From Acaryochloris marina MBIC11017 (GTDB taxonomy: Bacteria; Cyanobacteriota; Cyanobacteriia; Thermosynechococcales; Thermosynechococcaceae), in the NCBI RefSeq assembly GCF_000018105.1, contig NC_009925.1, positions 270,001-302,000 of the forward strand: 32,000 nucleotides of DNA, in the 5' to 3' direction. The notes beneath the pieces are model-generated. The model saw nothing but the letters and a program-made list of their open reading frames with translations. It did no database searches and was not told the DNA's origin. Below, one piece after another: positions 29,512-31,735 of this stretch. Within the stretch, counting starts at the first letter, position 1. Each line of letters begins with the position of its first letter. The translations under genes were made by a program, and so were the position numbers.

Positions 29512-29688
29512 CCGTGCCCCAATCGAGAAAGCTTACACACGAATAACGGTCCTAAGGTAGCAATGTGCGAGCGATCGCACTAGCGAAGCATCCAATATCT
29601 CTCGCAGATAGAAGATGCGGGCCCACTGCCAAGGTTGATTTGGTAAGAGCGGCCGTAAGTTGATGAACTGCTTTCTAAACTTGCACGG
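29512..29688 (+). ncRNA. Y-RNA-like scaffold, copy 1 (large variable module)
   Basis: Helix 1 CCGTGC (29512-17) / GCACGG (29683-88). Conserved asymmetric loop 5' CCCAATCG and 3' AAACTT. Helix 2 AGAAAGC (29526-32) / GCTTTCT (29670-76). Conserved TTACACAC follows. Confidence 0.45.
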
Positions 29689-29712
29689 AAGTATTGTTAT
29701 TGCCCAAAACTC

Positions 29713-29840
29713 GCGTTCGCACCCTAACGAAAAAAGCATACATACTCGCCAAATGGTAAGGCACTTGATTTGTAGATCAAGCACATACAGGTTCAACTCC
29801 TGTGTATGACACAACCGCTTTCTTGACTTGTGCGAAGCGC
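29713..29840 (+). ncRNA. Y-RNA-like scaffold, copy 2, carrying a tRNA-like cloverleaf (YrlA-like architecture)
   Basis: Helix 1 GCGTTCGCAC / GTGCGAA(G)CGC. Loop 5' CCTAACG and 3' (T)GACTT. Helix 2 AAAAAAGC / GCTTTCTT. Then ATACAT. The inner module is a 5-bp acceptor-like CATAC/GTATG, D arm GCC-AAATGGTAA-GGC, stem CTTGAT-TTGTAG-ATCAAG (6-nt loop, no canonical anticodon loop), and T arm ACAGG-TTCAACT-CCTGT. A T-run follows the 3' end. Confidence 0.5.
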
Positions 29841-29956
29841 TATTTTTAACGCAATAGCGTTCTGGATTTCTGGTATTGGCAACGTTCGTTCCCCTCCACT
29901 CCCCATTTCTGAGGGGAGTGTCGCCAAAACATTTACAGATTATCTAGAACCACACT

Positions 29957-30697
29957 ATGAGCGAACATCGATTAAGCGAAATCACCATTGAACGACCTCG
30001 TGGGGGAATGAGGCGTAGCCTCAGAAAGGTCAAGGGAGCAAGAAAACAGTTAGATCGCCTCACTGAAGTGGCTACCGAGGATGGGTTACTCAGCCCGTAT
30101 CTCATCAAACCGAGAGGTAAAACAAAGTGGCTTTCAGATCATTTGGGACCGCTGCGGCGATTTTTAAAGTCCCATGTGGGTCAACCCTGGGATGACGTTT
30201 ACAGCAAACTCTGTCGACGGCTTAAAACCAACACCATGGCGGGACAACATGTACTAAGCCATGTATGGGACTTTGTTGAACTCCATGTTGAAATCATGGA
30301 TGGTGTGCTGTACCACAAACCCTACTGGGGCTCTTTTCAGCCTTTAGACTATCGTTGTTATCGGGACAAATTCTATGTGCATCCTGAGACTAGAATTCTA
30401 TGTGCAGTTGAAAAGAAACCTCGTAAGCGACAGCGACAAAGGCCGCCATCCGATAGGGTTGTTATCGATGCCTATCATGAATATCAGCAACTAAACGAGC
30501 TTTGGTATCTGATTACCTATGAGGACTTTCCCCCTTTCCCTGTGATGACCGTGAGAGATGTGCTGCGGGGCGAAATCCCTCGGCAGACTCGATATGGCAA
30601 TATCAATACCCGTTATGCAGTCAAGAAAAAACAGTGTAACAAGAAGGAGATCCGATTTATTTTAAGTCAGATTAAAGCAGTTAAACCTACCTCCTGA
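29957..30697 (+). CDS. Hypothetical basic protein (246 aa)
   Basis: Clean ATG ORF, Arg/Lys-rich at both ends, no motif recognised. Confidence 0.55.
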   Translation: MSEHRLSEITIERPRGGMRRSLRKVKGARKQLDRLTEVATEDGLLSPYLIKPRGKTKWLSDHLGPLRRFLKSHVGQPWDDVYSKLCRRLKTNTMAGQHVLSHVWDFVELHVEIMDGVLYHKPYWGSFQPLDYRCYRDKFYVHPETRILCAVEKKPRKRQRQRPPSDRVVIDAYHEYQQLNELWYLITYEDFPPFPVMTVRDVLRGEIPRQTRYGNINTRYAVKKKQCNKKEIRFILSQIKAVKPTS

Positions 30698-30735
30698 GAG
30701 GGGTTGAAAGTCCTAGCTCTCTGTAGGAGATTGTT

Positions 30736-31416
30736 ATGCCCCACAAACATCACTTTAACCAGATGAAAAATCCTGAATCGGCCTTTGCCCTTCAGGAAAA
30801 ACTGCGGCACCAAGTCATCCGAGAGGACGATTTTGGTCCCCTTGAAACGGTGGCAGGAGTGGATGTTGGATTTGAGGATAAGGATCAAATTGCCTGTGCT
30901 GTAGTTGCAGTACTGAGACTATCTGATCTCAAGGTGCAGGAATCTGTGGCGATTCGTCTTCCGGTTACCTTCCCCTATGTACCGGGATTGCTAGCATTCC
31001 GAGAGGTTCCTATCGTCATGGAAGCCTTGGCAAGTCTGAAAACTCGGCCTGGACTCCTAATCTGTGATGGCAATGGCACCATCCATCCTCGTCGGTGTGG
31101 ATTTGCTTGCCATTTAGGAATTGTTAGTGGACTGCCGTCTATCGGAGTAGCCAAAACTCCTTTCATTGGGGAATTTCAACCTCTAGCCGATGATCGTGGG
31201 GCATGGCAGCCGATCACAGATGGGGGAGAGGTTATTGGGGCAGCCCTGCGGACACAAACAAAGGTTAAACCTATCTTTGTGTCCATTGGCCATCGCATTA
31301 GTTTGCAAAGTGCTATTGATTTGGTGCTCCAATGCGCTCCCGCATATCGTTTACCTGAAACCACTCGCCAAGCCGATCAGTTATCCAAGGGCAATGCCCA
31401 ACCTGTCATCTTATAA
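30736..31416 (+). CDS. nfi: Endonuclease V (inosine-specific endonuclease)
   Basis: VAGVDVGFED......AVVAVL.......E.......TFPYVPGLLAFREVP....AL..L...P.LLICDGNG..HPRRCGFACHLG.....PSIGVAK is the EndoV signature, including the catalytic D in GVDV and the PYIPG-like loop. Confidence 0.9.
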   Translation: MPHKHHFNQMKNPESAFALQEKLRHQVIREDDFGPLETVAGVDVGFEDKDQIACAVVAVLRLSDLKVQESVAIRLPVTFPYVPGLLAFREVPIVMEALASLKTRPGLLICDGNGTIHPRRCGFACHLGIVSGLPSIGVAKTPFIGEFQPLADDRGAWQPITDGGEVIGAALRTQTKVKPIFVSIGHRISLQSAIDLVLQCAPAYRLPETTRQADQLSKGNAQPVIL

Positions 31417-31419
31417 ACA

Positions 31420-31541
31420 ATCCGCACCCCAACAAGAAAAGCTTACATACTTGGTTGAGTCCTTACTTTATAGGGAGGGCTGCAGGTTCAAATCCTGCTT
31501 TGCTTCGCGCAAAAATGCTTTTCATACTTGTGTGGATTTTT
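31420..31541 (+). ncRNA. Y-RNA-like scaffold, copy 3 (module with a T-arm-like hairpin)
   Basis: Helix 1 ATCCGCAC (31420-27) / GTGTGGAT (31530-37), followed by TTTT. Loop 5' CCCAACAAG and 3' CATACTT. Helix 2 AAAAGC/GCTTTT. Then TTACATAC. The module contains GCAGG-TTCAAAT-CCTGC. Confidence 0.45.
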
Positions 31542-31603
31542 CAATTGGATATCGTGCTCTTCACCAGGTCGATGTCCTTCATTTTTTACTAATGGCAGTA
31601 TTG

Positions 31604-31735
31604 CCGCACCCAAACAGAGGGAGCTTACATACTCTCAATGGCCTGTTTCGCCTATCTCCATAGGCGAAACAGGCCGTCGCGAAAGCGAATTGCTTCCTTA
31701 ACTTGTGCGGTGCATCCATTGGGATGTGCTTTGCG
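31604..31735 (+). ncRNA. Y-RNA-like scaffold, copy 4 (hairpin module) plus a trailing terminator-like hairpin
   Basis: Helix 1 CCGCAC (31604-09) / GTGCGG (31705-10). Loop 5' CCAAACAG and 3' TAACTT. Helix 2 AGGGAGC/GCTTCCT. Then TTACATAC. The module has a perfect 14-bp hairpin GGCCTGTTTCGCCT/AGGCGAAACAGGCC and TCGC-GAAA-GCGA. The trailing hairpin is GTGCATCC-ATTG-GGATGTGC followed by TTT. Confidence 0.45.

Follow-up and report, generated by a model that had tools for sequence, protein, structure and literature searches.

Ro60 particles, as described in Deinococcus, Salmonella, and vertebrates, share a simple plan in which the stem of a Y RNA binds the exterior of the ring-shaped protein and the other end of the RNA tethers a second protein. 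Bacterial Ro60 proteins and their Y RNAs are thought to be limited to a minority of genomes, where they have been located via genes annotated with the TROVE domain. In the Salmonella rsr-yrlBA-rtcBA locus, the Y RNAs are co-transcribed with protein genes. The subject here is a 32,000-nucleotide stretch of the cyanobacterium Acaryochloris marina MBIC11017 (contig NC_009925.1, positions 270,001 to 302,000; the whole stretch is called the window, and coordinates are given in its own numbering). Near its end, four related scaffold elements, copies 1 to 4, precede a gene for a 475-aa protein whose public annotation reads only “vWA domain-containing protein.” The four elements are probably small noncoding RNA genes of one modular, Y-RNA-like family, in which a common scaffold would dock on a Ro60 homologue and the distal modules would mimic RNAs of translation. 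The best reading of the locus is a new branch of Ro60-Y RNA particles, set among genes of translational stress and RNA repair.

Several described systems show a similar design. The YrlA and YrlB RNAs of Salmonella (rsr-yrlBA-rtcBA) and M. smegmatis are likewise modular, with paired ends that form the presumed Ro-binding part and a distal tRNA mimic, and likewise occur several to a locus, on the same strand as the adjoining Ro60 homologue and with RNA-repair genes nearby (PMC4201824). The Yrn1-Rsr-PNPase complex of Deinococcus radiodurans (RYPER) and the metazoan Y RNA-Ro60 particles likewise have a ring-shaped Ro60 partner with a vWA domain and its metal ion-dependent adhesion site (MIDAS), and they too combine a conserved end-paired stem with a variable effector part. 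By analogy, this suggests that the scaffold RNAs share the gate-and-tether logic of these particles.

What do the four elements have in common? Folded singly, each yields the same outer structure: a closing helix (helix 1) of 6-10 bp, an asymmetric internal loop, a second helix (helix 2) of 6-8 bp, and a variable interior, with z-scores against shuffled sequences of -2.5, -2.8, -3.2, and -9.0 for the four copies. This is the layout that an earlier note on the same DNA had read from its letters; the copies stand where it placed them, with boundaries that agree within 1-3 nt, and the helix strands it quoted were all found. The helix 1 strands are CCGTGC/GCACGG, TTCGCAC/GTGCGAA, ATCCGCAC/GTGTGGAT, and CCGCAC/GTGCGG, and those of helix 2 are AGAAAGC/GCTTTCT, AAAAGC/GCTTT, GAAAAGC/GCTTTTC, and AGGGAGC/GCTTCCT, closed by AGC/GCU. 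The internal loop has the consensus 5' CCYAAY and 3' RACUU, and helix 2 is followed by UUACAUAC, that is, (T/A)TACAYAC across the four copies. A pattern that joins these parts, CCNAAYN7GCWTACAYAC, matches the window four times, always on the plus strand at the four copies, against 0.02 matches expected by chance. Thirty-seven family members, spanning every size class and including the four window copies, went into a covariance model, R1. Run over the 32-kb window with its filters off, it returns exactly the four copies, at 62-83 bits (E of 1e-14 to 1e-19), scores that are high by construction for training members; the next-best match reaches 10.9 bits (E of 0.64). By the same model, 0 of the 24 true tRNAs in the window are embedded in a scaffold.

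Helices that covary around a conserved loop, as the earlier note claimed, could not be demonstrated from four sequences, but the relatives supply the demonstration. Eighty loci (948 kb) were retrieved via the downstream protein from contigs representing one genome per species; the Ro-like gene was thus the query, and its presence in these loci proves nothing. A simple descriptor finds 137 distinct scaffolds in them, and a relaxed one finds 305 on the gene strand and 0 on the opposite strand. At least one scaffold occurs in 78 of the 80 loci, the commonest count being five and the highest seven copies per locus. One class, described below for its sarcin-ricin loop, has a GCC variant that falls outside the pattern GC[AT]TACA. 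Helix 2 was not required by the descriptor that gathered the first scaffold set, and its pairing is therefore no artefact of selection. For 50 non-redundant members trimmed to the spliced core, pairing holds in 93% of cells and compensatory changes occur in 11 of 16 pairs; registers slid by 1-3 columns give 34-53%. A plain MAFFT alignment of 37 full-length members behaves alike (94% of cells paired, 11 of 16 pairs compensatory, slid registers 31-53%). Among 89 matches from loci outside the training set, including nine phage-like contigs, 93.5% of cells are paired and all 16 of 16 pairs are compensatory, against 37-53% in slid registers, in an alignment that was fitted to R1 and so favours the structure. 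The invariant positions are C, C, A, and A on the 5' side of the loop, A, C, U, and U on its 3' side, the AGC/GCU end of helix 2, and UACAnA. Such an invariant loop between helices that vary is the signature expected of a protein-binding site.

Is the scaffold tied to the Ro-like gene when that gene is not the query? In the reverse search, metagenome contigs were scanned with a 15-base pattern from the 5' part of the RNA alone, and the 120 stretches obtained, mostly chance matches, were filtered by the full descriptor, which 24 of them satisfied. In twelve of these 24 loci, a Ro-like gene follows downstream in the same orientation. The remainder mostly end within a few hundred bases, leaving about 16 loci that can be assessed. 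Besides the twelve, four of the remainder have enough downstream sequence and comprise two with insertion sequence (IS) insertions, one with a neighbour named p246 (see below), and one RNA-repair operon, in which a scaffold of the sarcin-ricin-loop class sits (L131, JAESFH010000079.1) among genes for RtcB with an intein, an AAA_33 kinase, a Thg1-like polymerase, a metallo-beta-lactamase protein, and Tpt1/KptA. In this RNA-first search, genuine copies accompany the Ro-like gene or RNA-repair genes. Nine phage-like contigs from IMG/VR (L218-L226, 37-390 kb) carry Ro-like proteins 45-48% identical to the Acaryochloris one, with tRNA arrays and variant scaffolds upstream of the Ro-like gene (UACAAAC; helix 1 GUCC/GGAC). 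In cyanobacteria and phage-like contigs alike, the scaffold is tied to the Ro-like gene and shares its strand, and the system may be mobile or phage-derived.

The downstream gene runs off the end of the window, and a locus that extends the window by 10 kb (L001) was used to obtain its full reading frame. Pfam and NCBIfam give only vWA matches below threshold, both for the 75-aa fragment in the window and for the full 475-aa protein. An AF2 model computed from 35 homologues has a predicted local distance difference test (pLDDT) score of 77 and a predicted template modelling (pTM) score of 0.62. When this model was compared with the PDB by Foldseek, the best 12 matches were all Ro60 or Rsr proteins (human, Xenopus, Deinococcus Rsr, and Thermus phage phiLo), over about 500 aligned columns, with E values of 1e-10 to 1e-7 and template modelling (TM) scores of 0.58-0.66; the matches that follow are isolated vWA domains with a TM score of 0.27. 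Identity to the solved Ro60 structures is 14-18%. A profile of close homologues (A3) lost the weak TROVE match in the PDB that the single sequence had given, and a broader profile was needed. Such a profile (A9), made from 49 diverse family members that are 27-63% identical, matches human Ro60 (7e-16), the phage Ro60 (1.3e-13, over profile positions 23-392), Xenopus Ro (1e-12), and Rsr (1e-7). The sole invariant columns of the 49-member alignment are D300, S302, S304, T362, and D386, which make up the MIDAS motif, and the Pfam family vWA_Ro60 (PF25045) is matched by 12 of the 49. On the strength of the fold matches, the A9 matches, and the invariant MIDAS, the 475-aa protein is identified, by model and profile, as a divergent Ro60 homologue (a HEAT-repeat ring with a vWA/MIDAS domain) that domain annotation has missed. 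The suggestion in the earlier note that this open reading frame (ORF) might be Ro-like was thus well placed. The family is large: an exhaustive profile search gives 1273 clusters at 50% identity (E ≤ 1e-3), and members were found in 572 stretches matched in a scan of species-representative genomes.

What do the scaffolds carry? The distal modules differ from copy to copy. Rfam matches the module of copy 2 to the tRNA family at 29741-29808 with 38.3 bits, above the gathering score of 29, which bears out the acceptor-like, D, stem-loop, and T arms that had been assigned to it. ARAGORN calls tRNA-??? with an 8-nt anticodon loop, and of the 69 RNAs of this kind in the first set it calls a tRNA in 63. 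Their class (about 120-130 nt) is the commonest and has a full, non-permuted cloverleaf, in which U8-A9 and a standard D arm are joined by an anticodon stem of 5 bp and a GGUUCAAAUCC T arm; the stems of the D, anticodon, and T arms covary across 20 orthologues. Its acceptor stem, formed by UACAUAC and GUAUG, has 5 bp (CAUAC/GUAUG), and its strands run straight into helix 2, in place of the free-ended 7-bp acceptor. The anticodon is not conserved, with at least 20 different ones among the orthologues. Judged by its sequence, the module is a tRNA mimic and no decoding tRNA. Copy 3, in which a T arm had also been noted, indeed has a canonical one, GCAGGTTCAAATCCTGC, together with a V-like hairpin and a short hairpin; the D arm is lost. 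It aligns with a roughly 140-nt class in which the elements run in the order V hairpin, T arm, closed stem (AS), and D arm, and by this alignment it is a partial version of that YrlA-like permuted tRNA class.

Copy 1 points instead toward ribosomal RNA. Its segment ATAACGGTCCTAAGGTAGC, at 29543-29561, is identical over 19 nt to positions 1916-1934 of Escherichia coli 23S rRNA, and members of its class (about 180 nt) show 17-19 nt of exact identity to E. coli 23S 1916-1941 (AUAACGGUCCUAAGGUAGCGAAAUUC), whereas the longest exact 23S match in 2820 shuffles is 14 nt. In the consensus fold of 11 copy 1 orthologues, ACGGYC pairs with GGCCGU, so that the stem of helix 69 (H69) is re-formed in permuted order. 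A gapped local alignment of copy 1 to 23S rRNA is no better than those of shuffles, and blastn against E. coli genomes, a database too large for a 19-mer, gives no match. A likely, rather than certain, interpretation is that this module mimics H69-H71 of 23S domain IV. A resemblance to ribosomal RNA is also seen in a fifth class, found outside both the window and L001, of about 205 nt and about 40 related loci (for example, L010 10877-11083), usually downstream of the Ro-like gene. RNAs of this class contain a sarcin-ricin loop, AGUACGAGAGGA, identical at 17 of 18 positions to E. coli 23S 2651-2668, and a GTPase-associated center (H43/44) identical at 45 of 60 positions to E. coli 23S 1054-1113; the Rfam large-subunit rRNA (LSU) model scores the latter segment at 50.2 bits (E of 8e-14). 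The module of copy 4 consists of a perfect 16-bp hairpin and a GAAA-loop hairpin. The 16-bp hairpin is palindromic (31638-31673, GGCCTGTTTCGCCTAT-CTCC-ATAGGCGAAACAGGCC) and may have been inserted recently, as the minimal-class RNAs that stand at this place in other genera have no counterpart of it.

How do these RNAs compare with the known ones? The full YrlA order, (V)-T-acceptor-D, is found in no window copy, although it is present elsewhere in the 140-nt class, which shares the V-T-AS-D order with YrlA (PMC4201824). The text of the same paper also offers a lead: an element YUAY, here UUAC, comes after the 5' strand, about as far from the 5' end as in YrlA. Chen et al. 2014 speak of “relatively few” YrlA RNAs in cyanobacteria, and the 140-nt class may overlap slightly with the YrlA members they list. 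The differences are plainer. The conserved element here is the CCYAAY/RACUU loop with UACAUAC, not the YrlA 5' motif GNCGAAN0-1G; copy 2 is a complete cloverleaf with an anticodon arm, joined via its acceptor stem; and the partner protein is one that Pfam TROVE does not recognise. The modules here imitate rRNA as well as tRNA, which in the literature searched is unreported for Y RNAs. Compared with metazoan Y RNAs, the bulged GGUCCGA/UUGACU helix is absent, though the ends pair. The earlier note had likened TTGACTTG in copy 2 to the TTGACT of that helix, a likeness that does not extend to the family: UUGACU occurs in copy 2 alone, and the conserved 3' loop is RACUU(G) with a variable preceding base. 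In contrast to RYPER, nothing at this locus points to PNPase.

The copying of an rRNA or tRNA site by a short RNA that binds the protein recognising that site is familiar from the autoregulatory leaders of ribosomal-protein genes and from tRNA-like structures. The present RNAs resemble such leaders in copying rRNA sites, the GTPase-center copy being near enough for 50 bits with the Rfam LSU model. They differ in that the mimics share one scaffold, together represent more than one site of the translation machinery, and have a Ro60 homologue, not ribosomal-protein genes, as their linked partner. In a search of the full-text literature on Ro60, TROVE, Y RNA, tRNA arrays, and rRNA mimicry in cyanobacteria, neither the protein family nor the RNAs were found described.

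The setting of the locus suggests when these RNAs might be made. In Anabaena, TGTAGTAT is given as the TrcR repressor site of the trn operon, an operon that translational stress induces, and RNA-repair genes such as rtcB are reported to be co-regulated in the TrcR regulon (PMC10272220, PMC8421152). As in the cyanobacterial L-arrays that those papers describe, the window has a 24-tRNA array with TGTAGTAT boxes; in their searched portions, the papers mention no Ro-like protein and none of these RNAs (PMC8421152, PMC10272220). In the related loci, the tandem box is found 69 times on the gene strand and 4 times on the opposite one, and 33 of these tandem boxes sit 17-30 nt upstream of an RNA of the sarcin-ricin-loop class. 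TrcR control of the four copies in the window is thus an extrapolation from the placement of such boxes. A weaker tandem TGTA(G/T)TAT box also occurs on the minus strand at 28677-28696.

All features of the window from 20.9 kb to its end lie on the plus strand (Table 1). The tRNA array is interrupted by genes for an RNA ligase and a Macro-domain protein, and on its 3' side the order is two small ORFs, copies 1 and 2, the ORF p246, nfi, copies 3 and 4, and the Ro60-like gene. ARAGORN places an unusually long tRNA-Ile(tat) at 27328-27417, and after the array Rfam alone gives two more tRNA-like matches, at 27502-27598 and 27605-27678, of about 32 bits each.

Table 1. Features of the scaffold RNA locus, in window coordinates; those marked L001 lie in the locus that extends the window.
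Feature	Position	Strand	Basis or remark
Three TGTA(G/T)TAT boxes, TrcR-operator-like	20837..20878	+	Just upstream of the tRNA array
tRNA array, 24 tRNAs including rare isoacceptors	20953-27498	+	ARAGORN
RNA ligase fused to a tRNA-binding domain	24350-25651	+	Pfam; interrupts the tRNA array
Macro-domain protein	26509-27024	+	Pfam; inside the tRNA array
Small ORF p66, 66 aa	29286..29504	+	Conserved neighbour in 68/80 loci (tblastn)
Scaffold RNA copy 1, about 177 nt, 180-nt class	29512..29688	+	Minimum free energy (MFE) fold; R1 65.2 bits at 29510-29690
Scaffold RNA copy 2, tRNA-like class	29713..29840	+	MFE fold; R1 83.2 bits
ORF p246, 246 aa, between the RNAs	29957..30697	+	In 50/80 loci; 514 homologues
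nfi (endonuclease V), between the RNA pairs	30736..31416	+	Pfam Endonuclease_5, 1.4e-73
Scaffold RNA copy 3, predicted partial permuted tRNA	31419..31541	+	MFE fold, z -3.2; R1 80.8 bits
Scaffold RNA copy 4, nearest the gene	31602..31712	+	MFE -54 kcal/mol, z -9.0; R1 62.5 bits
Ro60-like gene, 475 aa, 5' end, runs off the window	31774..32000	+	Full ORF at L001 11039-12466
p280, 280 aa, neighbour of the Ro-like gene	L001 15155-15997		In 56/80 loci
ThiF/E1-like protein, 211 aa	L001 16739-17374		In 52/80 loci

Some of the neighbouring genes are conserved across the related loci and one is not. The protein p66 has no Pfam match; its C terminus reads ...RPEAVYG, with the terminal YG kept in 67 of 68 loci, and it may be ubiquitin-like, as ubiquitin-like proteins also have a C-terminal glycine. 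The sole match of p280 is a marginal, RRM-like one (E of 0.05), and PADLOC recognises nothing in the locus except the E1-like protein. Taken together, p66, p280, and the ThiF/E1-like protein look like a small conjugation module. For p246, Pfam gives no match, and comparison of its AF2 model (pLDDT 77) with the PDB gives no fold match for the confident core. The gene nfi is present in just 2 of the 80 related loci and is therefore a lineage-specific insertion or passenger, outside the conserved system.

How would such particles work? The two ends of each RNA would pair as helix 1, the CCYAAY/RACUU loop, and helix 2 with its AGC/GCU end, and UUACAUAC would lead on to the module. We infer that the scaffold RNAs are transcribed, processed, and stable, that they bind the Ro-like protein, and that their modules recruit further partners. 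By analogy with known Ro60 particles, the constant scaffold is the likely docking site for the Ro-like ring encoded downstream. The distal module would then present an imitation of a translation RNA: a tRNA in copy 2, H69-H71 of 23S rRNA in copy 1, and a partial permuted tRNA in copy 3, and in other genomes the YrlA-like permuted tRNA or the sarcin-ricin loop with the GTPase center. In this way the module could bring the Ro-like ring to proteins that recognise tRNA or ribosomal sites, such as repair or modification enzymes, translation factors, and ribotoxins; alternatively, it could titrate those proteins. The particles are probably made under translational stress, because the locus lies behind a TrcR-type tRNA array and among RNA-repair genes.

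Several results weigh against a Y-RNA-like family docking on a Ro60 homologue. The Rfam Y_RNA family (RF00019) has no match over 29400-31800 at the gathering score, nor at E ≤ 10; of the Rfam comparison that the earlier note had in mind, the tRNA match of copy 2 is what came through, and Y_RNA and all other families went unmatched. The YrlA 5' motif GNCGAAN0-1G occurs in 0 of the 305 scaffolds, the four window copies included. The architecture that had been ascribed to YrlA-type RNAs therefore holds for a modular scaffold beside a Ro-like gene and fails for the 5' motif and for a permutation of copy 2. On the protein side, Pfam TROVE (PF05731) does not match the 475-aa protein at E ≤ 10 or any of the 49 diverse relatives at E ≤ 0.01, and the AF2 model is of moderate confidence. 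The rRNA likeness of copy 1 consists of one 19-nt identity and one stem, and the Rfam LSU models do not match that copy at E ≤ 10. The gene linkage also has its exceptions: L131 and L184 have a scaffold without a Ro-like gene in the available sequence (11.5 kb for L131), and in L129 the RNAs and the Ro-like gene are divergent, on opposite strands. Finally, a scan of 29200-31800 finds no sigma-70-type promoter, intrinsic terminator, or tandem box by the four copies, which may be made by read-through and processing, as parts of a long transcript and not as discrete genes.

This last observation bears on an alternative. The scaffolds could be cis-acting parts of one long transcript, either processing cassettes that release the tRNA-like or rRNA-like pieces inside them, much as the RNase III stems around rRNAs do, or an autoregulatory leader by which the Ro-like protein governs its own mRNA, in keeping with a single strand that runs from the tRNA array through that gene with no detected promoter or terminator in the scanned interval, and with the Salmonella Y RNAs, which are also co-transcribed with protein genes. 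Copy 4 ends 61 nt upstream of the Ro60-like start codon, and in many other genomes a minimal copy stands at the same place, ending about 57-85 nt before the ATG; so fixed a distance would also suit a cis-acting leader. Yet RNase III stems need neither an invariant internal loop nor UACAnA, a locus may hold up to seven copies with quite different modules, and RNAs of the sarcin-ricin-loop class, which lie downstream of the gene, are preceded at 17-30 nt by TrcR-type promoter boxes of their own. We consider a purely cis-acting role unlikely, and in any case processing from an operon is compatible with action in trans. Might the RNAs instead act on their own, as independent decoys or sentinels for tRNA- or rRNA-cleaving toxins, with a scaffold that serves for stability or binds p246 or p280 and with no part for the Ro-like protein? 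The modules do copy ribotoxin targets (the tRNA anticodon arm, the sarcin-ricin loop, and H69-H71), the anticodons vary freely among orthologues, RNA-repair genes are nearby, and p246 lies between the RNAs in 50 of the 80 loci. The search that started from the RNA alone nevertheless finds a Ro-like gene in 12 of about 16 assessable loci, the other neighbours occur in fewer of the 80 loci, and no protein family other than Ro60 is known to bind RNAs built from modules in this way. Independence from the Ro-like protein is accordingly given a similarly low chance. It is highly improbable that the elements are functionless, whether as decaying tRNA genes of the adjacent array or as a short dispersed repeat. 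Copy 2 does score above the Rfam tRNA threshold, the locus follows a 24-tRNA array, and IS elements occur in some related loci, and the earlier note itself had named a dispersed repeat at unrelated loci as an outcome that would undo its proposal. However, the strand bias of 305 to 0 in the 80 loci and the compensatory changes in 16 of 16 scaffold pairs tell otherwise; the loop is invariant across genera and phage-like contigs, and 0 of the 24 true tRNAs are scaffold-embedded. Over the 80 loci and the metagenome and phage-like contigs covered, the covariation and strand data thus effectively refute this explanation.

The preferred reading, a modular family of small RNAs that would dock on the Ro60 homologue, can be carried further. 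These RNAs and their partner might form a distinct Ro60-Y RNA system of cyanobacteria and some large phages, in which a panel of mimics either decoys or senses ribotoxins or else serves as adaptors that deliver damaged tRNA or rRNA, with the enzymes that repair them, to the Ro ring, switched on by TrcR and coupled to the ubiquitin-like and E1-like pair. So full a version is possible but doubtful, and within it the decoy or sentinel role and the coupling to the ubiquitin-like and E1-like proteins are speculation.

Why would this matter for Ro60 biology? A family labelled “vWA domain-containing protein” would have escaped the Ro60 searches that rely on TROVE. The mimicry practised by Y RNAs would extend from tRNA to sites of ribosomal RNA, including a near-exact sarcin-ricin loop and the L11-stalk/GTPase center. 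The system would also be placed in a defined stress regulon, beside tRNA arrays whose function is debated. It would thereby offer testable handles on the role of bacterial Ro particles, namely the proteins that bind the modules and the cleavage and repair of RNA under translational stress.

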